Shown here: positions 4,147-36,390 of the stretch, one piece after another
Position numbering within the stretch: position 1 is the stretch's first letter
Layout of the letters: each line of letters opens with the position of its first letter
Source of the DNA: Anaerolineales bacterium
Lineage (GTDB): Bacteria; Chloroflexota; Anaerolineae; Anaerolineales; E44-bin32
Direction: 5' to 3'
DNA length: 64,000 nucleotides
NCBI GenBank assembly: GCA_040899905.1
Contig: JBBDZX010000005.1
Coordinates: 698,199 to 762,198, forward strand
Notes under the pieces: model-generated
What the model saw: the letters and a program-made list of their open reading frames with translations, nothing else
Database searches by the model: none
Told to the model about the DNA's origin: nothing
Program-made: the position numbers and the translations under genes

Positions 4147-4878
4147 TCAAAGGTACTTGCGCCGCACGATAAGATAGCTTGCCGGAAAGCGCACAGGCCC
4201 ATCGCCAGCATCCTCGGCTGTAATGATCGAGCCTCTGCCTTGCTCCAGGATCAACCACTGCTCATCCGGGAAGTGGCGCTTTTGATCGGCCAACTCAAAG
4301 GCATTCAGCCTCACGTTCTCTGGCATTCGCCATGCTTGAAGTCTAGGTACTTCCTGGAAACACCGGGCCGCGGCCCAGCGTAACTCGATCTGGTAGAGCG
4401 TTCCGGTCTTGCCTAGCAGTACTCCTAGACTGGAGACATACTGATGGCGCATGTGGGGCCGGATTACATGGAAGACGCCCCGCACATAGACATTCAGGTC
4501 CCCGAGTTCATCATGCAGCGATTGGATAGCCCCGGAGTCCATTACGTCCACAACGCGAAAGTGTATGCCTGTGCCATCCGGTGAGATTGATCGCGCGAGC
4601 TTCACTGCCGAGGGCGACTTATCGATACCGATGACTGATTCCCAGTGACGCGCCAGTCCAATGGTCTGTCTTCCGGCACCGCACCCAAGGTCGAGCAGAG
4701 GAAGAGCCGGATCGAAATACGGCATGAATCGCGCGATATCCTCCTCTATGGCTCTCGCGGGGTCAGCGTCCCAGAGCGTGCTGTGGCCCTGGTCGGAAGC
4801 CAATACCTCCCCCCAGAAGTCTTCCCAGCCGTCGATCATTCGTGCCTGATTCCTGGAAGTAGATTCATGCCTTCTCAT
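4147..4878 (-). CDS. Class I SAM-dependent methyltransferase
   Basis: SAM motif I LLDLGCGAGRQT followed by VIGIDKS. Internal ATG 4878 (MRRHESTS) chosen; the N-terminal 117 codons of ORF 4147..5229 look non-coding. ATG 4839 is an alternative. Confidence 0.8.
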   Translation of the reverse strand: MRRHESTSRNQARMIDGWEDFWGEVLASDQGHSTLWDADPARAIEEDIARFMPYFDPALPLLDLGCGAGRQTIGLARHWESVIGIDKSPSAVKLARSISPDGTGIHFRVVDVMDSGAIQSLHDELGDLNVYVRGVFHVIRPHMRHQYVSSLGVLLGKTGTLYQIELRWAAARCFQEVPRLQAWRMPENVRLNAFELADQKRHFPDEQWLILEQGRGSIITAEDAGDGPVRFPASYLIVRRKYL

Positions 4879-5240: not shown

Positions 5241-6320
5241 CTAACCAAAGGCGAATCGATAATATCTTCGCACGGGCAGTCGCTTCCACATCCACATCAA
5301 GATCAGTGGGCCCCCGAGACCCGCCAGGATCAATACCGCCAGGTAAACTAGCTGTGAGCCGAGGACCGCAGGTGTAAAGCGGTACATGATCACGGCTATG
5401 GAATAGGCGAAGGGAATATTCGCCAGATAGATTCCGAGTGAGTTTGCCCCGAGATAGGCCAGGTGCTTGGACATCGGAACCCGAGTCGCTGCGAATCCCA
5501 AGAAGCAAGGGGCAACGAGGGTGGCGTAGGTAATCCTGGCTATGCCCGGGTTATTCGGCCCCAGCCACTCCTGACCACTCCACCGCACAAGCAGCTCGTA
5601 TTCCACCAGGCTTAACGACAGCGTCGCGATGACTGCCCCCAGCAACCACCACCTCCTCCGCTGAATCCATTGCGAGGCTGCCTCGACATTCAGCCCTGCC
5701 ACGAGCCCCAGGCTGAAGTGCAGGATGCTCCCTGCGAAGATCCACCGCACGTTGTACTGGAAGATGAAACTCCAAATCGGGCCCTCCGCACCCATGAGAT
5801 AGAAGAACATGATGCTTTCGAAGCTGAGTTGAATGACCGCGGCACCCGCCAGGAAGAGCAAGGGTCTTGACTCCGCAATCCGGGCCAGTATCGGCGCCAA
5901 CAAGTACAGCTGCACAAGCACAACGAGATAGTAATAAGGATCCAGGATATCGTCGATCGATGAAGGGATTTTCCTCAAGAGGATATACCGAATCATGGTC
6001 CACAGAAGGAAGGGTACGAGAAGGACCTTGATCCGAGGCAGGACACTGTTCCAGGTAACACCCCCCGACTCACGCCGCGCCAGAAACGCAATGAAGAAGC
6101 CCGATACAAACAGAAATGCCGGTACCCCGAACGCGTCAAACTGGCGTGCGAGCATTAGGACATAGTACGCCAAACTTCCCAGTTGGTCGAAGTTGGGGAC
6201 GGCGACGTCCCGGTAGCGGTTCGTCCACTCGAACATTGCCTGCAGACCATACGCAGTTGCGTGATGAACCGGGACCATAAGCACTGCGAGTCCATTGAGA
6301 AGAAGAAGCCGTCGGGTCAT
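5241..6320 (-). CDS. Acyltransferase family 3 (OafA/YrhL-like) integral membrane O-acyltransferase
   Basis: About 10 predicted TM segments. N-terminal LNGLAVLMVPVHH-type motif typical of acyltransferase-3 proteins. ATG start. Confidence 0.75.
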   Translation of the reverse strand: MTRRLLLLNGLAVLMVPVHHATAYGLQAMFEWTNRYRDVAVPNFDQLGSLAYYVLMLARQFDAFGVPAFLFVSGFFIAFLARRESGGVTWNSVLPRIKVLLVPFLLWTMIRYILLRKIPSSIDDILDPYYYLVVLVQLYLLAPILARIAESRPLLFLAGAAVIQLSFESIMFFYLMGAEGPIWSFIFQYNVRWIFAGSILHFSLGLVAGLNVEAASQWIQRRRWWLLGAVIATLSLSLVEYELLVRWSGQEWLGPNNPGIARITYATLVAPCFLGFAATRVPMSKHLAYLGANSLGIYLANIPFAYSIAVIMYRFTPAVLGSQLVYLAVLILAGLGGPLILMWMWKRLPVRRYYRFAFG

Positions 6321-6438: not shown

Positions 6439-7836
6439 TCAACCTGGAGCTCGCCGTCCGATGTTCGCCGGGAAGATCGCTGCCTGCTCATCTGGAGTCA
6501 GTTCACAGGACGGCGCATTGAATTCCGGGCGGCGGATAACCGTGCTGCGGAGCATTTGGAAGTACCGCGGATTTGCCAGCAGATCCAGAAACCTATGGTA
6601 CTTCCTGTGATTCTCAAAGAAGTCCCCTGACAGGATGAAGTGCCCGGCTGCCATTGCATCCTCGTGTTCCTTGTACTCACCGAAGAACGGGAGCGCCTCC
6701 GCGAACGACACAGAGTGGGGGTTGTAGAACAGCGATATCAGGCGATACACGAAGCCGTAGGCTCCATTGATCTGCTCATAGGCTCTCGCGAGCGAACCAT
6801 TCTGATCCAGACTCCCGTTCGAGATCATTTCGACCAGGGCATCCGCTACCAGCCACGCACTCTTCATCGACAAGAAGATCCCACTCGAAAAGATCGGATC
6901 GATGAATCGGCTCGCGTCGCCAATCAGGGCGAACCGGGGGCCATACTTGACGCTGGACTCGTAGGAGTAATCCCCTTCTACGAAGACCTCCATCGCGATC
7001 TCCGCTCCCGCCAGGATCTCCGACACGGCCGGTGACTCGCCAATTTCGTCGCGATACACCGCTAGCTTCCAATCGCCCTTCCCATTGCCGGCCAGCTCGC
7101 GTTTCCGCTCCCGAAGGTAGCTGCTTTCCACCACGACACCAACCGTCACCTTTTCCGCCGAGAGGGGAAACACCCAAATCCAGCCCCGCTTCTCTCCACC
7201 CAGGTAGAAGATCAGCGAAGCACCCTGCTCAAGGCCAAAGGTCATCCTCTGAACTCCGGTCCAATGCGTCCACAAGGCGGTGCGCTCAAACCCGCGATTG
7301 GTCGTTCTCCACTTGTTCCTTACAGCCATGAACGTATCTCTTCCGCTGGCATCGATCAGAAACCGAGCCCTGATGACGCGCTCGCCCCCGCGAGGTCCGA
7401 CCGTTAATACCCGAACCTCGCCCGCTGATGTCTCAAAGTCAACATCCTTGACTCGAGTTCTCTCCCGAACTTCGGCCCCGCGGTTCCGGGCGTTTTCCAG
7501 TAGGAGCGTGTCGAACTGTTTGCGATCGACCTGGAAGGACAAGAAGGTCTCATCTTCGATGACATGGTTGAAGCACCAACTGGTCGCGCGCTGCCCGTCC
7601 CGGGTGGCGAATCGAACGGCAGGCTTGCGCACGAACGTCCGCTTCATCTCGTCAAGTACTCCCAGCTCATTGAGTATTCCGTAGCAGAATGGGAGAAGCG
7701 ATTCTCCGACATGCTCCCGGGGGAACTTCTCCTTTTCGAGAACTACCACCTTAAGCCCATTCTTCGCCAGGATGGAGGCAGCCGTCGTGCCCGCAGGTCC
7801 GCCGCCGATGATGGCCACATCCACGCTGCCTGTCAT
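6439..7836 (-). CDS. FAD-dependent halogenase-like oxidoreductase (paralog 1)
   Basis: VDVAIIGGGPAGTTAA (GxGxxG), FPREHVGESLLP, GWIWVFPL (WxWxIP variant with F for I), candidate Lys in FVRKPAVRF, and GDASRFIDPIFSSG. Start at ATG 7836 preceded by GGGAGA; the longest ORF starts at GTG 7860. Confidence 0.75.
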   Translation of the reverse strand: MTGSVDVAIIGGGPAGTTAASILAKNGLKVVVLEKEKFPREHVGESLLPFCYGILNELGVLDEMKRTFVRKPAVRFATRDGQRATSWCFNHVIEDETFLSFQVDRKQFDTLLLENARNRGAEVRERTRVKDVDFETSAGEVRVLTVGPRGGERVIRARFLIDASGRDTFMAVRNKWRTTNRGFERTALWTHWTGVQRMTFGLEQGASLIFYLGGEKRGWIWVFPLSAEKVTVGVVVESSYLRERKRELAGNGKGDWKLAVYRDEIGESPAVSEILAGAEIAMEVFVEGDYSYESSVKYGPRFALIGDASRFIDPIFSSGIFLSMKSAWLVADALVEMISNGSLDQNGSLARAYEQINGAYGFVYRLISLFYNPHSVSFAEALPFFGEYKEHEDAMAAGHFILSGDFFENHRKYHRFLDLLANPRYFQMLRSTVIRRPEFNAPSCELTPDEQAAIFPANIGRRAPG

Positions 7837-8032
7837 GTCCGTCTCCCTATCATGCGCCACCTCTTCGGCGACTCGCCGTTCGCCTGACCACTCCGACCAC
7901 AGGTACCATGCACGCGTACACCCTCATTGACCAACCCAACGTGCGGGCAAAGATCCATGACCCAGAGACTGCTCATCGCTGCGTACGAGGGCTCGTCTGT
8001 CAAACTCGGTAGCGAAGCGCCTCGGTAGGGGG

Positions 8033-8284
8033 TTAACTCTTGCTCTGCTTACGCTGTACGAGGGAACTCATTGCATTGATGGTCTCAAAATTCTCCGGCA
8101 CCACCTCGGTATCGTCGACCACCACCGAGAACTTCTCCTCGATGAACGCAACGAGACGCAGAATGCCGAGGGAATCGACAATCCCGCTTGCGATGAGGGA
8201 GTCTTCCCATGAGAGGGAAACATCCCCATCGGCCACCATAATATTCTGAACTATGAACTCTTCCAGAGCTTGGGATACATCCAT
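8033..8284 (-). CDS. DltC-like acyl/peptidyl carrier protein (carrier 1)
   Basis: About 83 aa. Phosphopantetheine site ASGIVDSLGILRLVAFIEEKF (D-S-L). AGGAGG lies 7 nt before the second ATG (8284). Confidence 0.8.
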   Translation of the reverse strand: MDVSQALEEFIVQNIMVADGDVSLSWEDSLIASGIVDSLGILRLVAFIEEKFSVVVDDTEVVPENFETINAMSSLVQRKQSKS

Positions 8285-8417
8285 TTCCATGCCTCCTGAT
8301 TTATGTTATACTAGGACGCACGCTCATTTGCGCGGCGGCTTTCGGTTTGTCCCGAGCGCCAACACGGGCCAAACCTGGACCAACCGATCAAGTGCAGTGC
8401 GGAGGGAGGGTAAGCGG

Positions 8418-9206
8418 TTGTTTCGTAATCAGCGCACGATCTTGATGCTGGCGATTGGGCTGATTCTCACGGTCTCGGTTGTTATCGCAGCCGCTTCAAC
8501 CGGCGCCCAACTGGCACCAGAGGGATCGGCAATGACCGATGAGCCCAACTCCACCGATTTGCCGCACTCCTCCGCCACAGTGCCATTCCCGTCTTCTGCG
8601 ACGTCTGAGGTCAATCCCGGCTCGACGGCGACGGCGGTCTCGAGCCCGACCGAGGACAAAGTGGCCAGCCCAAATCCCACCGTCACGTCAACTTCGGTAC
8701 CCGCAACCTCCGTGCCTCCGACCGGAAACCTGTTGGCAAACCCGTACTTCGAAGGAGATCATAGCTCCACGGTAATCCCCGGATGGGTGAACGACGGTCA
8801 GTGGGATATCTCCGTCAAACCTCACAACCCCAGTCCGAACGATACCTCGGCGCGCATTAACGGCCCAGAGCAGGCTGGCGAGTATCAGCAGGGTGAAACC
8901 GCGGTCATCTATCAGATCGTCGAGGGCGGAGGGTCGAACCTGGCAGCGTCAATCGCCTGTGTCCAGCATCAAGCCGAAGTCATGCAGGTCACGATCTTTG
9001 GATCGCAATCTCCCGACGGACCTTGGACATCCGTCTGGCAACCCTTCGACCTCTCTGCTTGCGGATTCGCCGATTGGGGGCCAACTGTCCACGCCCAGAC
9101 GCAGTTGCCGCAGGCGTGGGCCTACTATCAGTTTCAGATTGTCGGCCGGTATGTGGATTGGAGGGGAGGGGTTAAGGTCACGGATGTATCCTTGAGCCTC
9201 CAGTAG
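8418..9206 (+). CDS. Membrane-anchored/secreted protein with S/T/P-rich linker and C-terminal jelly-roll (carbohydrate-binding-module-like) domain
   Basis: TTG 8418 lies 7 nt after GGAGGGAGGG. N-terminal TM ILMLAIGLILTVSVVIAAAS, a long S/T/P low-complexity linker, then NLLANPYFEGD...IPGW resembling CBM4/9-type modules. It is the only plus-strand gene inside the minus-strand cluster. Confidence 0.6.
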   Translation: MFRNQRTILMLAIGLILTVSVVIAAASTGAQLAPEGSAMTDEPNSTDLPHSSATVPFPSSATSEVNPGSTATAVSSPTEDKVASPNPTVTSTSVPATSVPPTGNLLANPYFEGDHSSTVIPGWVNDGQWDISVKPHNPSPNDTSARINGPEQAGEYQQGETAVIYQIVEGGGSNLAASIACVQHQAEVMQVTIFGSQSPDGPWTSVWQPFDLSACGFADWGPTVHAQTQLPQAWAYYQFQIVGRYVDWRGGVKVTDVSLSLQ

Positions 9207-9232
9207 GTTCTACCGTCATACGGTCCAGAACC
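9206..9232 (+). terminator. Imperfect hairpin directly after the 8418..9206 stop
   Basis: GGTTCTACCGT-CAT-ACGGT(CC)AGAACC, followed by only a weak T stretch (CTCGTTTCC). Confidence 0.3.
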
Positions 9233-9596
9233 ACTCGTTTCCACTCACATTGCGAACACTGAATAGACTGACAAACGAAATTGAGAGGATCGGCTAGGCG
9301 GAGACACCCCCTCCGGAACCCGACAAGCGACCTACCAGGTTGAGTCGGGGGTGCCTCTCGCACGAGGGCCGGTGGACGTTCTGCTTGATGGAGTGCGTTC
9401 ACTCGCCCCGCATCCATGCTTCCGTCAGCTCGACGGCCGCGTCGTCGGCGTCGGTGCTCGTCCCGGATGTAGCCTGAGCCGATCGGAACGGAGTCGTCGC
9501 CCTCCTCCTGCTGCCCCGTTCGCCCTTTGGCATCTTCCTAACGCGCGCACTCCTTCCACGGGCCGATCGTCGTAGATCCCCTGAGGCGGTACGTGT

Positions 9597-10976
9597 CTAC
9601 CGGGGTCCCATCCACGCCTCGGTCGACTCCACGTCGGAATCGGCGTCCCAGATCGCGGCACGTTCCGGGTGGAAGCGCGAGCCGATCGGGATCGAGTATT
9701 CGTCTTCGCTCTCATAGGACCGTTCCCGCACCCCCTCTCGGCCAAGCAGTTTGCGCGCCGCCAGGACCCCCGGCGACGGCTGCCGCTCGAAGATCCTGCC
9801 GGCAAAGAGGTCCGTAATCAGATCGGTGTAACGGCTGTGCACGAACAACGCAAACGCTAGAGGGTGCTCCCAGAAGCAGTCGATCATGTCCTCCAGCACG
9901 TCGATACCGTGCTCCACACGCAACTGGTGGCCGCCGAACGGGTTCCGGCCGTTCCGGCCGACGCCGTTCAGGTAGTCGCGGATGAGCGGCGCGGCCAGCT
10001 GCGCCTCCTGCAGGGCGACCGCCAGGCCGAAGGAGAAGATCGGGTCGATGAAGCGATGCGAGTCGCCCAGGCAGAGGAATCCCTGGCCGGAGAACCGCCG
10101 CACCTGGTACGAGTAGTTGGGGATCACATGGACGTCTTCCGCCAGCTGGGCTGGTCCCGGAATCCGCCGGGACAGTTCGGGGTGCATTTCCCTCAGCTCG
10201 CGCAGGAAGAAGTCGCGCTTGCTCTCCTTCTTCTCCAGGAAGTACGCCGAGGGAACGACGATGCCGACGCTGACGATGTCTTCGTCCAGCGGGATGAACC
10301 AAGCCCAGTGGTATTTTTGCTTGTACAGGATGATCGTGTTGTCCGGGTGGTCCCGGCGTTCGCCGCCGCCGTCCCGCAGGGCTCCGGCTACCTGGGAGAA
10401 GACGGCGATTTGTTTGTCATAGGCGCCCAGGTACTTCGGGCCGGTAACCCCGCGCAAGTTGGCCAGCCAGGTCGCCTGGCCCGAGCAGTCCAGCAGCACC
10501 TCCGACTCGATGGCCTGCACCTTTCCGTCCGGCATCTGGACGGTCACCCCGCGCACCGTTCCCTCGTCGGAGACAATCGGCGCCAGGGCCCGGCCCTGCT
10601 CGAACCGGGCACCGTGGGCCAGCGCCTCGTCCAGCATCATCTTGTCGAAGTCACTGCGCCGAACCTGCCAGGTATCCCACTCAAAGAGATTCCAATTCTC
10701 GTCGCGACCGGTGACCGGGACGAACCATGTGCCGCGCGAGCTGCGACCGTACACCTTGACACCCTGCTTGCACGGGTGGCGGCGCCGGTACATCTCGGCG
10801 TCGAGTTTCAAGTCCCGCAACACCTTGCCCCCCGCCCCGGTCAGCGACTCCCCGATGTGGTACCGGGGGAAGGACTCCTTTTCCACGATCAGAGGGCGGA
10901 TCCCCTCCTGCAGCAGGAACATTGCCGCCGCCGCCCCTGCCGGGCCGCCGCCGACGATCACCACATCCGATTTCAT
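9597..10976 (-). CDS. FAD-dependent halogenase-like oxidoreductase (paralog 2)
   Basis: SDVVIVGGGPAGAAAA, FPRYHIGESL, exact WxWxIP (HWAWFIPL), candidate Lys in PCKQGVKVY, and GDSHRFIDPIFSFG. Its ATG overlaps the stop of the upstream adenylase (ATGA at 10973..10976). Confidence 0.8.
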   Translation of the reverse strand: MKSDVVIVGGGPAGAAAAMFLLQEGIRPLIVEKESFPRYHIGESLTGAGGKVLRDLKLDAEMYRRRHPCKQGVKVYGRSSRGTWFVPVTGRDENWNLFEWDTWQVRRSDFDKMMLDEALAHGARFEQGRALAPIVSDEGTVRGVTVQMPDGKVQAIESEVLLDCSGQATWLANLRGVTGPKYLGAYDKQIAVFSQVAGALRDGGGERRDHPDNTIILYKQKYHWAWFIPLDEDIVSVGIVVPSAYFLEKKESKRDFFLRELREMHPELSRRIPGPAQLAEDVHVIPNYSYQVRRFSGQGFLCLGDSHRFIDPIFSFGLAVALQEAQLAAPLIRDYLNGVGRNGRNPFGGHQLRVEHGIDVLEDMIDCFWEHPLAFALFVHSRYTDLITDLFAGRIFERQPSPGVLAARKLLGREGVRERSYESEDEYSIPIGSRFHPERAAIWDADSDVESTEAWMGPR

Positions 10977-12625
10977 CCAGACCTCCCTAGGGTCGCGCGG
11001 GCGTCACCCAGCCCGCCAAGCTGCCGCTCCGCCAGTTGTGAGCGGTCCACCTTGCCGCTCGATGTCTTGGGCAACTCTTCCAGGAACTCGAGGCTCTCGG
11101 GCACCATGTAGCGCGGCAATCGCTCCCGGCAATGGGAATCGAGATCGGCTGCGCTCACGCCGTTGTCGCCCAATCGCACCACATACGCCTTGATGCGACT
11201 TCCCACGAGTTCGTCCGGCACGGCCACGGCCACGGCCTCGCGAACGCCCGCGTGGCTGTAGAGAGCCGCCTCGATCTCCCCCAGCTCGATACGATAGCCG
11301 CGGCTCTTGACCATGTGGTCGCGCCGACCGAGGTAGCGCCAGGTCACGCCGTCTGCCTCCAGGCACACGACGTCGCCGGTTCGGTACGCCACCTCCTGCA
11401 CGTGGGGCTGCAAGGGGTTCGCCACAAATACCCCGGCGGTCTTGGGGCGGTCACCCCAATACCCCTGCGCCACGGTCGAACCGCGCACCCACAGCTCCCC
11501 CTCGCGGCCCGGCTCGTCGACCCGCTGGCCCGATTCATCTACGGCAAACACTTCCGTGTTCTCGCAGGCCCTGCCGATCGGCACCGGATGCTGGCGCTCA
11601 GGGTCCAGGTCGGCTGGACCCACCTGGTAGTACGTGCACACGTTGGTCTCCGTGGGGCCGTACAGGTTGTACAGCTCAACATGCGGGACCTTCGCCGCCA
11701 GCTTCCGCAGATATTTGATGGGAAAGACCTCGCCGGCGAAGAGGATCGTTCGCAGGGCGGAGAGGTCGTGGGCGTCCAGCCTCCCGTAGGTCACCATCAG
11801 AGTGAGCACGGAAGGCACCAAGTAGGTGAGGGTGATCCGCTCGTCGTGCAGGAGCTTCACCAGCCGCACCGGAAAAGTAGAAAGGCCCTCCGGAACCAGC
11901 ACCACTGTCCCGCCAGCCAGGAGGGTGGCAAAGATGTCGAGGGTCGAGAGGTCAAAATGCAGCGGCGCATGGCTGGTCACGCGATCGTCCGGGCCCATGC
12001 GGAACGTATCCACCGCCCAGCGCAGGAAGGTGAAGATCGTCCGATGGGAGATCATCACGCCCTTGGGTTCGCCGGTCGAACCGGAGGTGTAGAGGATGTA
12101 GGCAAGGTCCGTCTCAATGGTTCCGTCGTCCCCCAGGGGCGAGGCCTCGCCGCGGGCCACCTCGTCCCACGCAACGACTGTGCGCGCCCCCGGCCGAGGT
12201 GCTACCGGCAGAGGCTCTCCCAGCGGGCCGGCCTCGGTGAGGACGACAGCCTGCACCGGTGTTTCCTCGCGCAATAGCGCCTCGACCTCCGCGGCGCACT
12301 CTGCCGACGTCACGATCACTCGGATATCGCAATTGCGGGTGATGTACGCCAGCCGCGCCGCCGGCGCGCGGGCGTCCAGAGGGACGTACACGCCGCCGGC
12401 TTTCAGGATGCCGAACACGCTCAGTACCGAGGCGAGCGACTTGTGCAAGTAGATACCCACGCGATCCCCGCGCCGGACGGAGAGTTCGCGCAGGCTGCGG
12501 GCCAACTGAGAGCTCCGCCGGTCGAGTTCGGCGTAGGTCCACTGCCAGTCGCCGAAGCGCACGGCGATTTGGTCCCCGAAGCGGGAGGCTCCCTCCCGAA
12601 GGATGTGTTGGAGCAGATAGGCCAT
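10973..12625 (-). CDS. Stand-alone DltA-like amino acid adenylation enzyme (adenylase 2)
   Basis: A3 AYILYTSGSTGEPKGV, A4 HFDLSTLDIF (alpha-amino-binding Asp present), NLYGPTETNV, YRTGD, A8 GRRDHMVKSRGYRIELGEIE, LPRYMVP, A10 LPKTSSGKVDR. There is no condensation or carrier domain. Confidence 0.9.
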   Translation of the reverse strand: MAYLLQHILREGASRFGDQIAVRFGDWQWTYAELDRRSSQLARSLRELSVRRGDRVGIYLHKSLASVLSVFGILKAGGVYVPLDARAPAARLAYITRNCDIRVIVTSAECAAEVEALLREETPVQAVVLTEAGPLGEPLPVAPRPGARTVVAWDEVARGEASPLGDDGTIETDLAYILYTSGSTGEPKGVMISHRTIFTFLRWAVDTFRMGPDDRVTSHAPLHFDLSTLDIFATLLAGGTVVLVPEGLSTFPVRLVKLLHDERITLTYLVPSVLTLMVTYGRLDAHDLSALRTILFAGEVFPIKYLRKLAAKVPHVELYNLYGPTETNVCTYYQVGPADLDPERQHPVPIGRACENTEVFAVDESGQRVDEPGREGELWVRGSTVAQGYWGDRPKTAGVFVANPLQPHVQEVAYRTGDVVCLEADGVTWRYLGRRDHMVKSRGYRIELGEIEAALYSHAGVREAVAVAVPDELVGSRIKAYVVRLGDNGVSAADLDSHCRERLPRYMVPESLEFLEELPKTSSGKVDRSQLAERQLGGLGDARATLGRSG

Positions 12626-12642
12626 CGGCGTGCCTCTTGACC

Positions 12643-12849
12643 TCAGGCGCCCGCCCGCTCATGGGCGGCGGAGGACTTGCGGAGCGGTACAGTCATCCGG
12701 TTGGCCACCAGGGCAAAAACCATGATGATGGTGAAAGTCAGACCCGTCATGATGTTCATCGGCAGCCGGATCCATCCGACGCGCCCGAGCCCGGCGATGG
12801 TCTCCAACACGACTTTGTCCAACGGATCCCTATGCCACGGCACGAACAC
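12643..12849 (-). CDS. Possible small membrane protein (38-68 aa) between the dehydrogenase and adenylase 2
   Basis: Tail of ORF 12643..13401: ...DKVVLETIAGLGRVGWIRLPMNIMTGLTFTIIMVFALVANRMTVPLRKSS. It has one clear TM and high third-position GC. Candidate starts are GTG 12849 or ATG 12759. No family recognised. Confidence 0.3.
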   Translation of the reverse strand: MFVPWHRDPLDKVVLETIAGLGRVGWIRLPMNIMTGLTFTIIMVFALVANRMTVPLRKSSAAHERAGA

Positions 12850-12980
12850 TCCGTCGCGAATTGCGCCCCGCCCTTTCCCCCGTCTGCGGCGCGGAACCGA
12901 GGGGAATGATGTGCCAGGGGCCGGCGCCGGTCTGCGCGCTGGGCCTCGCGTCCATCTGGGAACGGTCACGACCTCCGGGT

Positions 12981-14126
12981 TCACAGGCCCAGCATCCGGG
13001 AGATGATCACCCGCTGAATGTCGGAGGTGCCCGAGTACAGGGTCCCACCGATGGCGTCGCGGACCTGTCGCTCGATTTCGAACTCGGTCATGTAGCCGTA
13101 GCCACCGTAGACCCGCAAGGCGTCCAGGCTGGACTGAAGGAAGGATTCGCTCAGATACAGCTTCGCCATAGCAGCTTCGACGACCGCGGACTTCCCGTTC
13201 TGTTTGAGCCACGCCACCTTGTACAGCAGCAGCCGAGCGGTCTCCAAGCGAACCTTCATGTCGGCGATCCGGTTGGACACGGACTGGAATTTGCCGATGG
13301 GCTGGCCGAACTGGCGCCGCTCGCGGGCATAGCGAATGCAGCCCTCCAACTGTCGTTCCATGGCGCCGATGTTGCCAGCCAGGATGCAGCTGCGCTCCCA
13401 CTCCATCGAGCTGTTAAACACCGTCAAGCCGGCGCCCTCGGCGCCCAATCTCGCTGAATCCGGGACGAAGCAGTCCCGCAGGATGATCTCGCTCATCGGC
13501 GAGGTCCGCAGCCCCATCTTGGAGATGTCGTTGCTGACGGAGAAGCCCTGGGCCTCCCGATCGACGAGGAAGGCGGTGATCCCGCCCCGTCCCAGCTCGG
13601 GGTCGAGTGTTGCAAATACAACGGCCAGATGGCAGATCGGTGCGTTGGTCGAGAAGGTCTTTACGCCGGAGAGAACATACCCGCCGTCGACCTTCTTCGC
13701 CCGCGCCCGCAGACTGGCCGTGTCGGATCCCGCGTCGGGCTCCGTCATCCCATGCGCCCCGATCAGGTCCCCGCGGCACAGCCCGGGCAGGTATCGTTCC
13801 TTCTGCTCCTCGGTCCCAAAGGTCTCAATCGGGTGCTGCACGCTCCACATCTGAGCATTGATGGCGAACACAAGCCCGAGGTCGGTACATCCGTAGCCCA
13901 GCCCTTCCATCACCAGCATCGTGGTGAGGATGTCTTCTCCGGCGCCGCCGAAGTCCGGAGACACGGGAAGCCCCAGAATCCCGAACTCGGCGCACTTGCG
14001 CCAGTTGTCCAGCGATAGTTCTCCGCGTCGATCCCGATCGATGACTTCGTCGTTGAGGTTGTCTTTGGCGAAGTCCACGACGGCCCGCTTGTAGGCATCT
14101 TGTTCCGGGCTCCAGGAGAAGTCCAT
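12981..14126 (-). CDS. Acyl-CoA dehydrogenase family flavoprotein (possibly acting on a carrier-bound substrate)
   Basis: MDFSWSPEQD start with GAGG 7 nt upstream. Typical ACAD blocks GAHGMTEPDAGSD and QFGQPIGKFQ. The C-terminal block reads LYSGTSDIQ instead of the usual YEGT. Confidence 0.9.
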   Translation of the reverse strand: MDFSWSPEQDAYKRAVVDFAKDNLNDEVIDRDRRGELSLDNWRKCAEFGILGLPVSPDFGGAGEDILTTMLVMEGLGYGCTDLGLVFAINAQMWSVQHPIETFGTEEQKERYLPGLCRGDLIGAHGMTEPDAGSDTASLRARAKKVDGGYVLSGVKTFSTNAPICHLAVVFATLDPELGRGGITAFLVDREAQGFSVSNDISKMGLRTSPMSEIILRDCFVPDSARLGAEGAGLTVFNSSMEWERSCILAGNIGAMERQLEGCIRYARERRQFGQPIGKFQSVSNRIADMKVRLETARLLLYKVAWLKQNGKSAVVEAAMAKLYLSESFLQSSLDALRVYGGYGYMTEFEIERQVRDAIGGTLYSGTSDIQRVIISRMLGL

Positions 14127-14443
14127 CACCGCACCTCGAGGCGCTTCCACCACCGGCACCCGCTCATCGGGGCGTCCGGGTTGTCCAGCAAAGAGACCGG
14201 TCTTCTCATCTGGCCATCTGGTGGCGGCCGCTCGCCGCCGCAGCGTTCAGATCCGGACGGGTGAACCCCGCAGGACCGCGGCGCCCGGCGTTCACAAGGG
14301 GCGTATCTGCGGCGGGCGCCGGCCCAGTTTCGGGAAGATCCGCAGCACAAGCCCCGCCGGTCCCTGCAGCACCCCAAACCCCAAGAGCAACGAGGAGGAT
14401 TCTGCCCAGGGCAGGGCTTTCGTCCGTGCGGCGCTCGGGACGG

Positions 14444-17389
14444 TTAGCTCGTTGGTTCCTCGCTCGGTCCGAAGAGAGGAATCACGTCCTGCCGTTCGTG
14501 CAAGGCCTGATACAACCTCTCCGCGAGCAGCCGGTGTCCGGCCGCGTTCGGATGCTTATCCCAGTAGGCCACAACCAGCGACTCTACGTCCTGATGATCG
14601 AAGGCGTCGGATAGATCCAGAACAAGGAAACCCGATTCCTCGGCCAGGCGGGCGAGGTGCGTCACGGTCTCTTCCCGCAGCGGATTCTCCAAAGTCGGTA
14701 CGAAGATCCAAATGGGGAGAACACCATTTGCGCGTGAGGTTTCCACGACACGGCGATAGGTCCACGCGAGGATTTCGCTCCCTATTGGCTGGAGGTGTCT
14801 TTCGTTCTCCACCATGGTGGCGCCGGCCTCTCCTCCGGCCTGGTGGGCGAGTTCCATCAAGTCGGCGTAGGGGAGCTCCGCCCCCACGGATATCCGGTCT
14901 GCCAGATACCTCGCGGTGTCCGATTCCTCACGCTGATGGGCGATGAAGAAGAGGGCATCGGGTTGAAAGGAGACCCCCTTTTGTTCCAGGACCATCAGAT
15001 TCTGGATCGCAGAGTAGCCTGGAACGGCGAAGTTCAGGATTTCGTATCTGGCATAGCCACTCCCGCCATTCTCACGATTCAGGCGGTCCTCCAACAGCGA
15101 CTCGAAAACTTCGTCATTGGCGACGCCCGACCCCATCACAAAGGAGGGGCCGGTCAGGGCGACGCGGTAGGTGTCCGCTTGTGGGATCAGCTCGTAATCC
15201 CGATCCCGCATCCCCCAGCGGTTGGTGCTCAACAAGGCTCCCTGGAAGTTGATCGTCGTCGAGGGGACGAGCTCTACCATCAGGTTGTCGCCGGTTTGTC
15301 GCGCCACCTCCGTCTCCATGATGGACGGCCAGTCCGATGGCCGTTTCGTGTAAATCTCCCACAGCTGAGAGTTGAATCGATCTACCCCGACCAGGTCTTC
15401 GTAGTAGCCGCGCTGGAGCAGCACGGCCTCCCGCTCGCTCAGTCGGTTCACCGTCAGATCGCCAAGGAACGCCTGAACTGGGCCACCCAGGCGGCTCTGT
15501 ATTGCCGGATGGCCCAGCAGGAGCAGGAAGATGAGCGGTACCCCCGTGGCCGCAAAGGATCTCACCAGAGGGGCCTGCTTTCGCTTCGCCCCGAGGCCCA
15601 TTTCGCCTCGCGCGCTCGCCCAAATCGCCACCCCCATCACAGCCATGAGGGCCAAGAACGCGAACACCAGTACGGCGATGTCGCCAGGAGTGATCTGAAC
15701 GACGGACAACAAGGAAATCCAATCCTGAATCGAATCGCCGCCCCACAGCGCCCACAAAACCGCCATGATTGTGAAGGTGCTTGCCGTCCGGATCGCCAAC
15801 GCAACCGTTTCGCCAAGCGACCTGGCACGCCGGCCCAGGGCTCGATCTCGGCCGCGCCTGGCCTCATAGAGCATGTTGGCGATGATCAGCAGGGTCAGGA
15901 TCAGCCAGAACAAAACATCCTGGGCGGTCAGGAGAAACGAACCGCGGAGCCAGAACCATTGGTACGCATGCAAAAACCAGGTCAGAAAGAAGACGATCGC
16001 AGTTGCCAGGACCATGCTGGTAGTGGGGCCCCACTGCCGGATTCGAAAGTAGACGGGATAGTAAAACACCTTCAACATAAAGTCTTTCCAATAGATGTTG
16101 ATCCGGCGCCATATGTTAGTGAAGCTACTGGCCAGGAAATATAGGTGATGGGTTTCCGGCAGGTTGAAACCGAATAGGTGTAAGAGCCCAATGATCAAAT
16201 GAAACTGACCGGAAATACGAACATAGAGGCCAAAGTTCGCGACGAGATAGCGCACAAGCTCCGTCGCATTTGTGACTTCCTGGGGGCTGAGCATGACGTA
16301 GTAGTTGAGGTATCGATATAGAAGAAGATGGACGATCCCCCGGAACATCCACCGCAGCCCTTTTTGATAGATCGCATGCTGCTCGTCATCATAGTAGGTT
16401 CGTCGGAATGTGCCGTAGTCGACGATCGGGAAGAAAGGGAAGACGACGTTAGGCAACAGAAAGAAGTACGAAAGCGTGCTAGCCAGCGTCGGTTTCGCCT
16501 TTCCATGCCGGAGATCATACATATAGACGATCAGGCGAAACATGAACATCGAGGCCAGAATCGGCCAGATCACTCCCAGCCCGGATGCCTCGATCCAGCC
16601 GGCTCGTATGACCGCCAGCAGAACCCCAGCGGTAAGGAGGAGAAAAACTCGAAGCCCATAGGCCACCGGAAGATGAGCGAGGCCGACCAGGCCTAGCCCG
16701 ATCGCAAGCAGCCAAACAGAGTTGGCGAGCCCCAGGATCCCCACCAGCGCGGCCAGGGAAAGAAGCAGGAAGTAGGGAAGCCGATAGTGGGCAGGCAGCA
16801 GATAGTGAATCAGAAAGCCATACACTACCAGTGGAATGATATTGAGGTAGACAGCTTGAGTTTCCAGGTGGAATAGGCGGACGACTAGTCCTAGGAGGCT
16901 AAGCTGAAGCAGGATGCTCAGAAACGTGCCCACCTTCAGCCTGTCCAAGCTAACCTGCCCGAGCCAGGTCCGTACCTTCCGCCAATCCCACGGTTCCGCT
17001 GCAACGGCGCTGAGGGACAGCACGGTGACACAGGTCGAGGCCAGAACCGCAAGCTTCGCTGGCCATTCCGGCAGACCATTGATCACCAGCAAGTCGGCGG
17101 CGAATGCGGCTGCGAGAACCGCAACCCCAACCAGCAACCACTCGCCAATCGGGCGCAGGCCAACAGGCGAAACCAGGACGAGGCCTGCTCCCAGAATGGC
17201 GAACCCACTCAGCGCAACGGAGACCTGCTTCGGGCCTATGCCTGACTGCTCGCCAATCCTCAGCAAATCAGCAGCGAACGCCAACGCCATGACGGCGGCG
17301 CCGATCCCTACGAGACTGAAGGGTACAAGTCTCTCCCAGTTAATGATGGTTAGTCTGCGCAGCACCGATCGGCCCTTCTTCCCCGACAA
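14444..17389 (-). CDS. Fusion protein: N-terminal polytopic extension + MBOAT (DltB/AlgI-like) core + C-terminal extracytoplasmic SGNH (DltD/AlgJ-like) domain
   Basis: 981 aa. MBOAT blocks MFMFRLIVYMYDLRHG, GLLHLFGFNLPETHH, FTNIWRRINIYWKDFMLKVFYYPVYF and LTWFLHAYQW. The C-terminal domain has YRVALTGPSFVMGSG (Ser block) and YWDKHPNAAGHRLLAE (Asp/His block). Confidence 0.85.
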   Translation of the reverse strand: MSGKKGRSVLRRLTIINWERLVPFSLVGIGAAVMALAFAADLLRIGEQSGIGPKQVSVALSGFAILGAGLVLVSPVGLRPIGEWLLVGVAVLAAAFAADLLVINGLPEWPAKLAVLASTCVTVLSLSAVAAEPWDWRKVRTWLGQVSLDRLKVGTFLSILLQLSLLGLVVRLFHLETQAVYLNIIPLVVYGFLIHYLLPAHYRLPYFLLLSLAALVGILGLANSVWLLAIGLGLVGLAHLPVAYGLRVFLLLTAGVLLAVIRAGWIEASGLGVIWPILASMFMFRLIVYMYDLRHGKAKPTLASTLSYFFLLPNVVFPFFPIVDYGTFRRTYYDDEQHAIYQKGLRWMFRGIVHLLLYRYLNYYVMLSPQEVTNATELVRYLVANFGLYVRISGQFHLIIGLLHLFGFNLPETHHLYFLASSFTNIWRRINIYWKDFMLKVFYYPVYFRIRQWGPTTSMVLATAIVFFLTWFLHAYQWFWLRGSFLLTAQDVLFWLILTLLIIANMLYEARRGRDRALGRRARSLGETVALAIRTASTFTIMAVLWALWGGDSIQDWISLLSVVQITPGDIAVLVFAFLALMAVMGVAIWASARGEMGLGAKRKQAPLVRSFAATGVPLIFLLLLGHPAIQSRLGGPVQAFLGDLTVNRLSEREAVLLQRGYYEDLVGVDRFNSQLWEIYTKRPSDWPSIMETEVARQTGDNLMVELVPSTTINFQGALLSTNRWGMRDRDYELIPQADTYRVALTGPSFVMGSGVANDEVFESLLEDRLNRENGGSGYARYEILNFAVPGYSAIQNLMVLEQKGVSFQPDALFFIAHQREESDTARYLADRISVGAELPYADLMELAHQAGGEAGATMVENERHLQPIGSEILAWTYRRVVETSRANGVLPIWIFVPTLENPLREETVTHLARLAEESGFLVLDLSDAFDHQDVESLVVAYWDKHPNAAGHRLLAERLYQALHERQDVIPLFGPSEEPTS

Positions 17390-17453: not shown

Positions 17454-19016
17454 TCAATCCCGGAGCTCCATTAGTTTTTGGTAGTCGATCTTGTCCGTGG
17501 AAGTCTTCGGCAACGCCGGCTCGAAAACAAACAGGTCCGGGACCATGTAGATGGGTAAGTTCTCAGCACAGAAGCGCTTTAGCTCGATGATGGAGGGGCG
17601 CTTCTCTGGCTCCTTACAACTAATGTATGCCTTGACCCGCACCCCGTTCTCGTCGTCGGGCAATGCGATCACCGCCGCCTCTTTCACCGCCGAGTGGCGA
17701 TACAGTCCGGCCTCGATCTCGCCCAACTCAACTCGATACCCCCGCTTCTTGACCATCCGATCCCGCCGTCCGACGTAGAGGTAATCGCCATTCGCATCCT
17801 CGACCACGATATCGCCCGTCTTGTACCAAAGTTGACCCGACGAGTCTGTCAGAAAGGCAGTGGCGGTCCGTTCTGGCAGATTCCAGTAGCCCTGCATGAC
17901 CCCGGGACCGGCGATGCACAATTCGCCCTCCTGTCCGGCCGATACCGCTTGCCCCTGCTCGTTCACCACGATCGCCTGGCAGTGAGAGCACGCCTTCCCG
18001 ATAGGATAGGGCTGGGTTCGCTCTTCAGGGATGTGGCCCGGAATCTCATGGTAGGTGCAGACGTTGGTCTCGGTTGGGCCATACAGGTTGAAGAAACTTG
18101 GTCCAGGCAGGAGATTCGTGAGGGCCCGGAGATGCTTGACGGGAAACACCTCGCCTGCGAAGAGCACCCTTCGCAACGCGGCGTAATCGTGCTGTTGCAT
18201 TCTGCCGTACTGCGCCAGCATGCTCAAGACGGAGGGTGCCGAGTACCAGCTCGTGATTCGTCGCTCCGCGATGGTTGCGGCGAGGCCGATCGGATCCTTC
18301 GCAGTTTCGTCCGCGATTAGGACCAGGGCCGCGCCGTGCTTCATCGGTACGTATAGATCCAGAATGGACAGGTCGAAGTGGAAGGGTGCGTGCGAAGCGA
18401 AGCGCTCTCCGTCGGCCGGCTGGAACACCTCCGAGCACCAATCGACGAAGCTCAGCGCGTTGCGATGCGAGAGCATCACGCCTTTCGGCTTCCCGGTCGA
18501 CCCCGAGGTATACAGGACGTAGGCCAGATCGTCCGGTGACACCTCGGCCGAATCCGACACCGGCGCCGGATCGGTAGCCTGCAGTTCGTCGAGAGCTCGA
18601 CTCAACGGTACTCCGCCGCCAGTCGCCTCGACGACCAACAGCGACGCCGGCGCACCGAGGCTGGCAAGTTCCGTGTGCAGCCTGTCTTCAAAGCGGCTCT
18701 CCACCACCACGATCCGTACCTGGCAATCGTTCAGAATGTACGCGTTTCGGGCAGCCGGCGCGGCAGCATCCACCGGCACATACGCGGCACCGCACTTCAA
18801 AACGCCAAAGATCGCCGCAACCGCATCGATGGATTTGGGCAGATACAGCCCTACCCGGTCGCCTCGACTCACGCCAGCATGTTGAAGCCTGTCTCGCAGG
18901 CGATCCGAAAGGTGCGCAAGTTCGCGAAACGTGATCCGATGGCCCTCGCCGTCTTCGACGGCGAGTTGATCGGGACGGCCCTGCGCGGAGCGCTCCAGAA
19001 AGTGGTGGATGAGCAT
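17454..19016 (-). CDS. Stand-alone DltA-like amino acid adenylation enzyme (adenylase 1)
   Basis: A3 AYVLYTSGSTGKPKGV, A4 HFDLSILDLY, NLYGPTETNV, YKTGD, A8 GRRDRMVKKRGYRVELGEIE, LPIYMVP, A10 LPKTSTDKIDY. The ATG lies 9 nt after the carrier-2 stop. Confidence 0.9.
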   Translation of the reverse strand: MLIHHFLERSAQGRPDQLAVEDGEGHRITFRELAHLSDRLRDRLQHAGVSRGDRVGLYLPKSIDAVAAIFGVLKCGAAYVPVDAAAPAARNAYILNDCQVRIVVVESRFEDRLHTELASLGAPASLLVVEATGGGVPLSRALDELQATDPAPVSDSAEVSPDDLAYVLYTSGSTGKPKGVMLSHRNALSFVDWCSEVFQPADGERFASHAPFHFDLSILDLYVPMKHGAALVLIADETAKDPIGLAATIAERRITSWYSAPSVLSMLAQYGRMQQHDYAALRRVLFAGEVFPVKHLRALTNLLPGPSFFNLYGPTETNVCTYHEIPGHIPEERTQPYPIGKACSHCQAIVVNEQGQAVSAGQEGELCIAGPGVMQGYWNLPERTATAFLTDSSGQLWYKTGDIVVEDANGDYLYVGRRDRMVKKRGYRVELGEIEAGLYRHSAVKEAAVIALPDDENGVRVKAYISCKEPEKRPSIIELKRFCAENLPIYMVPDLFVFEPALPKTSTDKIDYQKLMELRD

Positions 19017-19025
19017 CGTCGCGGG

Positions 19026-19301
19026 TTACAGCTTCGACTGGACCAGCTGTTCCATGTCGGAAATGGTGTTGAAGTAATCGACCGTTGTCTCGTGCGCTTC
19101 AATACCGATTTGAAATCGCTTTTCGAGAAACAGCACCAAGTTGACCGTGGCGAGTGAGTCGAGGATCCCCCCGGTGATGAGGGGAGTTGTGTCGGTCAAT
19201 GCTGACGGGTCTTCCCCCGCAAGGAACTCGTCAAGGATGTACTTCTTGATCGCCTGCCCGATCCCCTCCCTCGTCTGCTTTTCTCCATCCACCTCGCTCA
19301 C
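19026..19301 (-). CDS. DltC-like carrier protein (carrier 2)
   Basis: 91 aa, with ITGGILDSLATVNLVLFLEKRF (D-S-L). GTG start preceded by GGAGAGGAGG. Confidence 0.85.
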   Translation of the reverse strand: MSEVDGEKQTREGIGQAIKKYILDEFLAGEDPSALTDTTPLITGGILDSLATVNLVLFLEKRFQIGIEAHETTVDYFNTISDMEQLVQSKL

Positions 19302-36036: not shown

Positions 36037-36390
36037 CAGCAACCCTGCTCCCTCCGACCGCCGCCCATGGCGGTGGTCTGGCTCCCTCGGCTCCGAAATC
36101 CAGGTCCAGGCCGCGCGCGTTCCACCGTGCAACGCACCAGTCTGATCCCGGCTCGCCGCCCACCGGATGAGCCGGTTCGGCCCCTCGGGGTCTGCATCGC
36201 ACGCCCTGGAGGCTGAAGACCGAGAACTATTCGGTTGTTGTCAAACTCTGGAGTAGCGCCTGAGGGGCCGGTCTGGCTGGCAGTTGGCGCTTCCTCCGCT
36301 CCCACTTGTAACGGAGAGAACTACATAATTGCGGCCGGCCCTTGGGAAAAAATCCTAATCTCTTCGGCCCTAATTGTGCGGATTCTTCTT

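Follow-up and report, generated by a model that had tools for sequence, protein, structure and literature searches.

In the biosynthesis of pyoluteorin, proline is activated by a free-standing adenylase (PltF) and loaded onto a small carrier protein (PltL), the bound prolyl group is oxidized by PltE, a homolog of the acyl-CoA dehydrogenases (ACADs), and a flavin-dependent halogenase (PltA) acts on the tethered pyrrole. The Bmp pathway yields free tetrabromopyrrole, and in clorobiocin and coumermycin, a pyrrole-2-carboxyl ester made by the same trio of adenylase, carrier and ACAD homolog sits on noviose. To our knowledge, proline-to-pyrrole cassettes have been described only where they prime the synthesis of polyketide or peptide antibiotics or give rise to free halopyrroles, and the CloN1-N7 system of clorobiocin and coumermycin is the sole precedent for the placement of a carrier-bound pyrrolyl-2-carboxyl group on a sugar hydroxyl. 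Here we analyze a gene set of this kind in a 64,000-nucleotide stretch of DNA from an Anaerolineales bacterium (assembly GCA_040899905.1, contig JBBDZX010000005.1, positions 698,199 to 762,198 of the forward strand; hereafter, the window, to which all coordinates refer unless another locus is named). We consider it moderately likely that these genes make up a type II proline-to-pyrrole cassette with two halogenases that lies in a glycan operon and has membrane O-acyltransferases as its partners in place of a polyketide synthase (PKS), a nonribosomal peptide synthetase (NRPS) or a thioesterase.

The enzyme families involved are all known; what is new is the wiring, in which a halopyrrole cassette is joined to polytopic acyltransferases. 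A preliminary description of the window had already interpreted the genes as a halopyrrole cassette, and all our in silico checks support that interpretation at the level of sequence, from which we infer pyrrole rather than dehydroproline as the product, the use of halide and the transfer step. Full-text literature searches retrieved no description of pyrrolyl-acylated polysaccharides, of a pairing of acyltransferases of the AT3 (Acyl_transf_3) family with carrier proteins, or of such a cassette in Chloroflexi.

The dehydrogenase and the adenylases

The open reading frame (ORF) of the ACAD homolog (ACAD; 12981-14159, minus strand) probably starts at the ATG at 14126, because its relatives align from residue 12, which gives a protein of 381 amino acids (aa). 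The protein carries all three Acyl-CoA_dh domains of Pfam. Among the NCBIfam models, PigA gives 428.7 bits and RedW, an L-prolyl-peptidyl carrier protein (PCP) dehydrogenase, 389.1 bits, both under the respective equivalog cut-offs of 500 and 650 bits, and the best model from primary metabolism gives 302. Among the structures in the PDB, the prolyl-acyl carrier protein (ACP) dehydrogenase AnaB (4irn) scores 452 bits and PigA (5zw0) 320, compared to 265 at most for ordinary ACADs; in global alignments, the protein is 50.5% identical to AnaB and 42.5% to PigA. By profile and structure scores, then, the nearest relatives of this protein are the prolyl-carrier dehydrogenases AnaB, PigA and RedW, not the ACADs of fatty acid metabolism. 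The protein ends in ...GGTLYSGTSDIQ and has the internal segment SSMEWERSCILAG; the YSGT sequence and the helix with acidic residues to which the preliminary description had drawn attention are both present, the latter in SSMEWERSCILAG. Their counterparts in the alignments are FYSGTS and SMEWERGFILA in AnaB and FSGTN and SMIWEKGCLSA in PigA. Across 86 aligned members of the family, the column of the catalytic base of the isovaleryl-CoA dehydrogenase type is always Glu and the column of the base of the medium-chain ACAD type is always Ser. The sequence of ACAD is accordingly that of a predicted prolyl-S-carrier dehydrogenase of the PigA/RedW/AnaB group. We know of no sequence marker that separates the two-electron from the four-electron enzymes of this group; the co-located halogenases of the pyrrole type argue, indirectly, for pyrrole as the product of ACAD.

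Two adenylases are encoded on the same strand, namely, adenylase 2 (A2; 10973-12625), a free-standing amino acid-adenylating enzyme with the AMP-binding and AMP-binding_C domains of Pfam, and adenylase 1 (A1; 17454-19016), a second apparently Pro-type enzyme that is 43% identical to A2. Both match TIGR01733, the model of the amino acid adenylation domain, above its cut-off (A2 with 401 bits). The ten specificity residues were taken by alignment to the GrsA-PheA fragment, for which the procedure returned, as a control, the textbook code DAWTIAAICK. The code of both A1 and A2 is DLLYLALVCK, with nine residues identical to the DLLYLALVC of PltF as read from the printed PDB alignment with 6o6e; the code of PigI from the prodigiosin cluster of Pseudoalteromonas is DLFYIAWVC. 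PltF (6o6e) is also the best single-domain match of A2 in the PDB and, when the specificity region of A2 alone is searched, comes first with 134 bits, with the best DltA at 56. A1, too, has PltF as its best single-domain match, with 337 bits versus 236 for DltA.

The same code recurs in other genomes. Relatives of the locus were collected by scanning one genome per species with ACAD, which yielded 241 hits, of which the best 80, with 63-74% identity, were taken; individual loci are designated below with L and a number. The A1 orthologs in L002, L015, L085 and L086 share DLLYLALVCK, and among 82 adenylase ORFs from related loci, 54 have DLFYLALVCK and 8 DLLYLALVCK, the others being mostly flanking NRPS genes. 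Full-text literature searches for DLLYLALVCK and DLFYLALVCK found nothing.

The preliminary description had noticed the pattern D-L-x-x-L in both adenylases, where it is indeed present, and had considered it compatible with either DltA-like or Pro-activating enzymes. The complete codes, both identical to that of PltF, settle this ambiguity as far as sequence can and argue against D-Ala and Gly. We predict that A1 and A2 are specific for L-Pro; D-Ala or Gly is a very unlikely substrate because of the shared code and because PltF outscores DltA over the specificity region. This bears directly on the simplest alternative view of the locus, that it encodes an ordinary Dlt/Alm-type system which attaches D-Ala or Gly to a teichoic acid-like polymer, next to ACAD and flavoenzyme genes that belong to lipid metabolism, beta-oxidation or isoprenoid metabolism. 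The DltA models of NCBIfam do match both adenylases with 278-311 bits, below their cut-offs, and Dlt-like features of the second carrier and of a 981-aa membrane protein are described below; nevertheless, the codes, the superiority of PltF over the specificity region and the grouping of ACAD with prolyl-carrier dehydrogenases rather than with fatty-acid ACADs render such a system most improbable.

The halogenases, carrier 1 and associated enzymes

Both flavoenzymes encoded in the cassette are predicted flavin-dependent halogenases that act on carrier-tethered substrates. FAD2 (9597-10976, minus strand) contains the Trp_halogenase and FAD_binding_3 domains of Pfam and is Bmp2-like: the structure of Bmp2 (5bva), a brominase of pyrrolyl-S-ACP, gives 246 bits and 35% identity in a BLAST comparison, and the next halogenase structure 133 bits. 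Its motifs are GGGPAG, Lys70, W224-x-W226-x-I-P (HWAWFIP) and GDSHRFIDPIFS, and the first three are kept across its whole clade. FAD1 (6439-7860, minus strand) represents a rarer clade, with members in L006, L027, L071 and, probably, L086. It matches Trp_halogenase with 94 bits in Pfam and CmlS with 203 bits in NCBIfam, far under the cut-off of 900, and its PDB matches are ChlB4 and CndH (171 bits each), Mpy16 and CmlS (164 each) and PltA (155). The corresponding motifs of FAD1 are GGGPAG, Lys79, W227-x-W229-x-F-P (GWIWVFP) and GDASRFIDPIFS. The catalytic Lys of both enzymes aligns with that of Bmp2, ChlB4 and Mpy16, so that FAD1 and FAD2 each possess the features of halogenases with carrier-bound substrates, that is, the GxGxxG site for FAD, the Lys, a motif of the WxWxIP type and the GD...DPIFS motif. 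The characterization of the two as halogenase-like paralogs in the preliminary description holds with respect to the predicted function but not with respect to recent paralogy: the proteins are only 31% identical and fall into different halogenase clades.

Other assignments of FAD1 and FAD2 were considered. Geranylgeranyl reductase structures reach about 40 bits with either enzyme, versus 155-246 bits for the carrier-substrate halogenases, and this reading was set aside given also that the halogenase motifs are kept; the same comparison counts against a Dlt/Alm-type system with incidental isoprenoid genes. Readings as a QhpG-like monooxygenase or as LodB/GoxB maturases were likewise set aside, on account of lower scores and the presence of the halogenase motifs.

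The identity of the bound acyl group is a separate matter. If ACAD halted after the removal of two electrons, the carried group would be 1-pyrroline-5-carboxyl (dehydroprolyl), or it could even be prolyl, and the flavoenzymes would be oxidases or hydroxylases, or would halogenate some other substrate such as a glycan or a lipid. AnaB is the closest characterized relative of ACAD by both score and identity, about half of the related loci lack a halogenase, so that the base modification can do without one, and the matches of the flavoenzymes to QhpG and to the LodB/GoxB maturases in NCBIfam, lower as they are, point the same way. However, FAD1 and FAD2 keep the halogenase-specific Lys and the WxWxIP-type motif, and their best matches include the pyrrolyl-S-carrier halogenases Bmp2, Mpy16 and PltA. 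Moreover, four halogenase clades accompany this family of ACADs. All four keep the Lys and three keep WxWx(I/F)P, the Pro of which is missing in the fourth clade (GWAWHIQL) and in one outlier. Recruitment of four clades beside one dehydrogenase family is hard to explain unless the product of the dehydrogenase is the substrate of the halogenases, and we consider a two-electron stop with unrelated flavoenzymes distinctly unlikely.

Carrier 1 (CP1; 8033-8290, minus strand), a type II peptidyl/acyl carrier protein, matches the PP-binding domain of Pfam, with Ser40 in a DSL motif. Its PDB matches PigG (28 bits) and PltL (26) come ahead of DltC (22), and in most of the related loci, CP1 is encoded beside the ACAD-adjacent adenylase. 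A 4'-phosphopantetheinyl transferase (PPTase) of the Sfp/HetI type, which contains ACPS and AASDHPPT_N domains and matches HetI in NCBIfam with 131 bits, below the cut-off, is encoded by the gene that closes the operon (1784-2698, minus strand); a PPTase gene is also found inside the cassette of L088. By their sequences, the adenylase, the carrier with its PPTase and the ACAD all correspond to the components of the type II proline-to-pyrrole cassettes PltF/PltL/PltE, RedM/RedO/RedW and PigI/PigG/PigA. A methyltransferase dependent on S-adenosylmethionine (SAM; 4147-4878, minus strand; start uncertain, ATG at 4878 or 4839), which matches Methyltransf_25, Methyltransf_31, Methyltransf_11 and, weakly, TPMT (26.4 bits) in Pfam, may methylate the pyrrole or the halogenated product. 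Its homologs adjoin the AT3 gene in L088 (6283-6999 of that locus) and lie inside the cassettes of L002 and L006.

Linkage of the carrier to a membrane acyltransferase

The polytopic membrane acyltransferase AT3 (5241-6320, minus strand) matches PF01757 with 76.7 bits (cut-off 31; E = 2e-21), and the N-terminal His characteristic of the family, His20, is invariant in 52 cassette-linked homologs. We regard AT3 as a candidate for the enzyme that passes the acyl group to a glycan. What singles it out is its conserved linkage to the carrier. In 25 of the 52 CP1-type genes that are followed by at least 1.5 kb of sequence, the gene directly next, on the same strand, encodes an AT3 protein, with a median gap of 82 bp; among 55 ACAD loci with at least 6 kb downstream, AT3 is found in 31, a halogenase in 26 and an ORF of at least 800 aa in 23. 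A reverse test started from AT3, with the neighborhoods of six AT3 homologs (40-50% identity) being read. A halogenase and a carrier are encoded directly upstream of four of the six, with Wzm/Wzt and glycosyltransferases downstream, and in these positive loci, ACAD, an adenylase, a PPTase or a methyltransferase also appears upstream wherever the locus extends far enough.

The position of the AT3 gene right after those for a carrier and an adenylase hints at a donor that is carrier-bound and is not an acetyl group. The preliminary description had proposed that the product is probably handed on by transfer, without release or extension. In agreement with this, the scanned ORFs of the window contain no ketosynthase, condensation, thioesterase or flavin-reductase domain of Pfam, and an AT3 gene is conserved downstream of the carrier and FAD1. 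As a side observation, a comparison by eye of residues 8-20 of AT3 places Ala12 where the Arg of the GLRG motif, which we take from OafA to be canonical in AT3 proteins, would be expected; this replacement may relate to a donor other than CoA.

A second module with a predicted membrane acyltransferase of a different fold

Upstream of ACAD on the same strand lie genes for carrier 2 (CP2; 19026-19301), which is paired with A1, for A1 itself, and for a 981-aa membrane protein (14444-17389). CP2 matches PP-binding weakly (17 bits in Pfam), with Ser49 in a DSL motif; its best NCBIfam model is ACP_for_OlsHI (107 bits), which derives from work on the ornithine-lipid enzymes OlsH/OlsI, with DltC at 29. 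Sequence searches with the 981-aa protein detect only an SGNH part (Lipase_GDSL_2, 32 bits, just under the cut-off); the MBOAT model of Pfam misses the protein, and the N-terminal 700 aa yielded nothing in the Pfam and PDB searches. Some of the relatives are called DltB or AlgI in JGI annotation. An AlphaFold model built with 34 homologs has a low pLDDT of 59.7; in a fold search with this model, DltB (6bug_C and 8jem) and the MBOAT protein PORCN came out on top (TM 0.52-0.56, prob 1.00), with SGNH esterases and PatB next. The family of this protein comprises at least 2991 homologs. Its invariant residues include N431 and H474 and, in the SGNH part, S749, D944 and H946; the former two would be the Asn/His pair of MBOAT proteins, an assignment made by eye from similar spacing. 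We predict from the model that the 981-aa protein is a DltB-fold MBOAT protein fused to an SGNH domain.

The order CP2-A1-MBOAT is kept in L001, L002, L085 and L086. In L085, which encodes the nearest relative of the 981-aa protein (91% identity), the three genes stand next to Wzm/Wzt, without ACAD or halogenases, and the two modules are therefore separable. The preliminary description had touched upon A1 and the second carrier only in passing; jointly with the MBOAT-SGNH protein, they make up a separate, Dlt-like module. Compared to the Dlt system, this module has a DltB-like MBOAT protein, as judged from a low-confidence model, and a DltD-like SGNH partner, albeit fused to it, but no D-Ala adenylase. 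The DltB fold and the weak DltC match of CP2 are thus what an ordinary Dlt/Alm-type system would show; since A1 has the proline code of PltF, however, the predicted role of the module is to place a prolyl-derived rather than a D-alanyl group on a polymer.

Related loci in other genomes

Cassettes of this kind occur in at least 80 genomes, the majority of them from Anaerolineae. The taxa among the best 80 are Anaerolineales, Ardenticatenaceae, Promineifilaceae and Caldilineaceae, with some Acidobacteriota and Proteobacteria, including Desulfonema magnum. The recurrent core consists of ACAD, a Pro-type adenylase, none to three halogenases, CP1 and AT3, and its surroundings are of four types. A glycan-type locus is exemplified by L046, with a glycosyltransferase of family 4 (GT4) followed, further along, by ACAD, adenylase, carrier, two AT3 genes, an epimerase, a glycosyltransferase of family 2 (GT2) and another GT4. 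The MBOAT type, which lacks AT3, is exemplified by L018, with CP2, MBOAT-SGNH, AlgX, a PMT_2-like protein, an SGNH protein, ACAD, a Na+/H+ exchanger, a PltA-like halogenase, a HAD protein, Wzm and Wzt; loci like L018 and L091 also lack an adenylase. In the NRPS type, found in Promineifilaceae and Leptofilum, the order is two NRPS genes, ACAD, adenylase, Bmp2-like halogenase, carrier, AT3 and two proteins with condensation, PCP and thioesterase domains; in L060 (103-21070), the pair of carrier and AT3 is retained with the latter two proteins added, and in the similar loci L047, L051, L053, L056, L058 and L080, AT3 likewise stays with the carrier outside an obvious glycan context. A PKS-type locus is L076 of Desulfonema.

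Comparison with the syntenic locus L086 reveals a mosaic, with identities of 95% for ACAD, 85% for A1, 81% for CP2, 78% for MBOAT, 74% for CP1, 59% for A2 and 57% for FAD2; the stretch from ACAD to FAD2 is at 9597-14159 in the window and at 17087-21341 in L086. The GC content at third codon positions (GC3) is 0.82-0.87 in ACAD, A2 and FAD2 and 0.64-0.74 in the neighboring genes. Taken together, the mosaic identities and the GC3 contrast suggest an exchange of modules, with part of the cassette replaced by recombination or transfer.

These comparisons are relevant to the possibility that the cassette produces a diffusible small molecule, either free halopyrrole-2-carboxylate or a Bmp-like polyhalopyrrole, released spontaneously or by an SGNH hydrolase, so that the glycan locus would be incidental and the AT3 and MBOAT proteins would acetylate with acetyl-CoA. 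A mobile module, as suggested by the GC3 values and the mosaic, would fit such a view, and so would the closeness of FAD2 to Bmp2, the service of the ACAD-adenylase-carrier core in PKS and NRPS lines of other genomes, and the presence of SGNH proteins, whose fold family includes the thioesterase TesA. Yet, no thioesterase domain or Bmp1-type ACP-thioesterase was found among the scanned ORFs of the window, and the AlgX-like SGNH protein has, by eye, an N-terminal membrane anchor that would place it outside the cytoplasm. In addition, the cassette lies within a single co-directional operon with glycosyltransferases and the PPTase, and the adjacency of carrier and AT3 is too frequent and too tight for coincidence, also when sampled from AT3. 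We consider production of a small molecule unlikely.

Two side observations concern the related loci. First, a gene of the Na+/H+ exchanger family, absent from the window, is located beside the halogenase and ACAD genes in L018 (11148-12629), L087 (1-1693), L088 (1-596) and L090 (1-363 and 1655-3754); its product might supply or balance halide or other ions for halogenation. Second, L082 belongs to the Rhodobacterales conjugative plasmid pRR4-35_2 (NZ_CP049039.1). Between 7564 and 11741 of this locus, genes for a PCP, for an ACAD that is 50% identical, for a methyltransferase and for an adenylase whose code, DIFFIGSMCK, is not that of proline adjoin YjbH/YjbF and polysaccharide export genes; this is a possible analogous system for glycan acylation with another amino acid.

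Organization of the locus

The whole cassette is contained in a co-directional block on the minus strand that begins at about 36.1 kb, ends at about 1.4 kb and is headed by a gene for an RfaH/UpxY-like NusG paralog (35482-36132). We count the presence of this antiterminator at the head of the operon as support for a glycan operon. From there, the block encodes a hexapeptide acetyltransferase, a GT2, a B12-type radical SAM protein, a Wzy_C-TPR protein, a protein of the type I phosphodiesterase family, an SGNH protein, a carbamoyltransferase, the AlgX-like SGNH protein, a sulfotransferase, a weakly PMT_2-like membrane protein, CP2, A1, the 981-aa protein, ACAD, A2 and FAD2, and then, after the single gene on the opposite strand, CP1, FAD1, AT3, the methyltransferase, a GT4, the PPTase and a BNR protein. 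The region from 38 to 63 kb contains transport, signaling and housekeeping genes that are unrelated to the cassette, and an Rfam scan of the whole window gave no match.

The order of the minus-strand genes given in the preliminary description, coordinates included, is the one we find, and the ATGA overlap between the stop of A2 and the start of FAD2 is present in the sequence (...ctggATGAaatcg). The possible small membrane ORF that had been placed between ACAD and A2 has no support: the 355-bp gap (12626-12980) contains no called gene and is unconserved in the syntenic L086, and we rejected this candidate. Conversely, the plus-strand interruption turned out to be a real gene (8253-9206), with a 58% identical counterpart in the same position and orientation in L086. 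The match begins at residue 55 of the ORF in the window, and the real start is probably near 8415-8445. In the protein encoded by this gene, the only one on the plus strand of the block, a membrane anchor is joined through a linker rich in S, T and P to a C-terminal domain (about 150 aa) that is strongly conserved; the protein matched no family in Pfam or NCBIfam. A promoter-like site lies near this gene (8284-8312, plus strand), in a promoter and terminator scan that gave only weak consensus matches.

Near the head of the block, the B12-binding radical SAM protein and its neighbors (31687-33357 and 33400-35351, minus strand) deserve mention. The radical SAM protein is HpnJ-like (218 bits, below the cut-off) and 76-77% identical to the products of genes that adjoin the ACAD cassette in L004 and L010; the GT2 and the hexapeptide acetyltransferase beside it are kept in the same two loci with 65-73% identity. 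This conservation is unusually high for genes of a glycan locus.

A possible route and its implications

From what the sequences show, namely, family membership, the proline code, motifs for catalysis and a conserved linkage of the genes, the best-supported route can be outlined as follows. The HetI-type PPTase would convert CP1 and CP2 to their holo forms; A2 would activate L-proline and load CP1; and ACAD would oxidize prolyl-S-CP1 to pyrrolyl-2-carboxyl-S-CP1, unless it halts, like AnaB, at the two-electron dehydroprolyl stage. The Bmp2-like FAD2 and the PltA/Mpy16-like FAD1 would then chlorinate or brominate the tethered pyrrole, conceivably with reduced flavin from a housekeeping reductase, and the methyltransferase may add a methyl group. 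Finally, AT3, encoded directly after FAD1, would receive the carrier-bound acyl group on the cytoplasmic side of the membrane and esterify it onto a glycan, the acceptor being made by GT2, GT4, the weakly PMT_2-like protein, the Wzy-like protein, the sulfo- and carbamoyltransferases and the SGNH/AlgX proteins. The second module (A1, CP2 and MBOAT-SGNH) would operate like Dlt with proline and could deliver prolyl or, with ACAD, pyrrolyl groups. In its most specific form, the proposal is that Anaerolineae and other bacteria put chlorinated or brominated pyrrole-2-carboxylate esters on a surface glycan, directly from the carrier by way of AT3 or, in sister loci, MBOAT-SGNH; this we advance tentatively.

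Several observations weigh against a halopyrrole cassette that serves a glycan. ACAD falls under every curated equivalog cut-off of NCBIfam and is nearer to AnaB, which stops after two electrons, than to PigA, and in the WxWxIP motif of FAD1, Phe replaces Ile. Two of the six AT3 homologs of the reverse test have no cassette within 8 kb; no fusion of AT3 with a carrier or an adenylase is seen among the 120 AT3 homologs listed, all of which consist of AT3 alone and are about 270-385 aa long; and we know of no AT3 enzyme that uses a carrier-protein donor. Wzm/Wzt were not seen among the scanned ORFs of the window. The core of ACAD, adenylase and carrier precedes PKS and NRPS megasynthases as well (L076, L060), and because AT3 is present in the NRPS loci too, its acceptor need not be a glycan. 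Altogether, the proposal is a prediction from sequence and gene linkage, the chemistry of which, that is, four-electron oxidation, the halide and the regiochemistry, the use of carrier donors by AT3 and MBOAT, and the glycan acceptor, is wholly what we infer.

Should the proposal be correct, the glycan would be the first envelope polymer of bacteria found to carry halogens and AT3 the first enzyme of its family to draw on a carrier protein as donor, and natural-product tailoring chemistry would have been reused for the modification of the cell envelope. Cell-envelope biology would gain a new class of glycan modifications, namely, aromatic and possibly halogenated esters, and the principle of Dlt, donation from a carrier protein to a polytopic acyltransferase in the membrane, would extend to the AT3 superfamily and to proline. 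The combination of the cassette with membrane O-acyltransferases spans many uncultured Chloroflexota and some Acidobacteriota and Proteobacteria, with glycan genes in the window and in many of the related loci. On the same condition, soils, sediments and wastewater, all of them habitats rich in Anaerolineae, would harbor an unrecognized biological sink for halides.

Comparison with known systems

The starter cassette of pyoluteorin in Pseudomonas protegens (PltF/PltL/PltE/PltA) likewise combines a free-standing Pro adenylase, with the identical nine-residue code, and a flavin-dependent halogenase with a dehydrogenase of the ACAD type and a small carrier of type II. There, however, the PKS (PltB/C) extends the dichloropyrrolyl starter, whereas the window has no PKS and the carrier gene is instead followed by AT3 in a glycan operon; the ACAD of the window is nearer to AnaB than to the PigA type, and there are two halogenases of different clades. 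With the Bmp1-4 pathway for tetrabromopyrrole in Pseudoalteromonas, the locus shares the logic of converting proline to a pyrrolyl-S-carrier and a halogenase, FAD2, that is nearest to Bmp2, with the Lys and WxWxIP aligned. In that pathway, a Bmp1-type ACP-thioesterase, which has no counterpart in the window, releases the product. At the positions altered in the Bmp2 triple mutant 5bul (Y302, F306 and A345), FAD2 has, by eye, F, V and L, and the number of halogens is therefore unpredictable.

In the anatoxin-a pathway of Oscillatoria (AnaC/AnaD/AnaB), AnaB is the nearest solved homolog of ACAD, with SMEWER and YSGTS shared and a prolyl-carrier substrate; unlike in the route favored here, oxidation by AnaB ends with dehydroprolyl, which is passed to a PKS, and the pathway has no halogenase. 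In the CloN1-N7 system, transfer is the work of soluble enzymes, a KAS-III-like acyltransferase and an alpha/beta-hydrolase, together with a second carrier, and the acceptor is a small aminocoumarin glycoside; in the window, the candidate transferases are the polytopic AT3 and MBOAT proteins, which would act on a polymer.

The architecture of the Dlt system (DltA-D) is similar in that an adenylase supplies a small carrier with its acyl group, a polytopic MBOAT protein takes this group from the carrier across the membrane and an SGNH-type protein completes the transfer to the polymer. In the window, by contrast, the code is for proline rather than D-Ala, a single protein combines MBOAT with SGNH, the genes are accompanied by those for ACAD and halogenases, and the main cassette is based on AT3. 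As for AT3 itself, the known O-acyltransferases OafA, OatA, Oac and WecH use acetyl-CoA. The enzyme described here has in common with the known AT3 proteins the Acyl_transf_3 fold, the invariant N-terminal His and the surface-glycan context, but belongs to a subfamily that is free of a fused SGNH domain and is encoded directly after a carrier and an adenylase.

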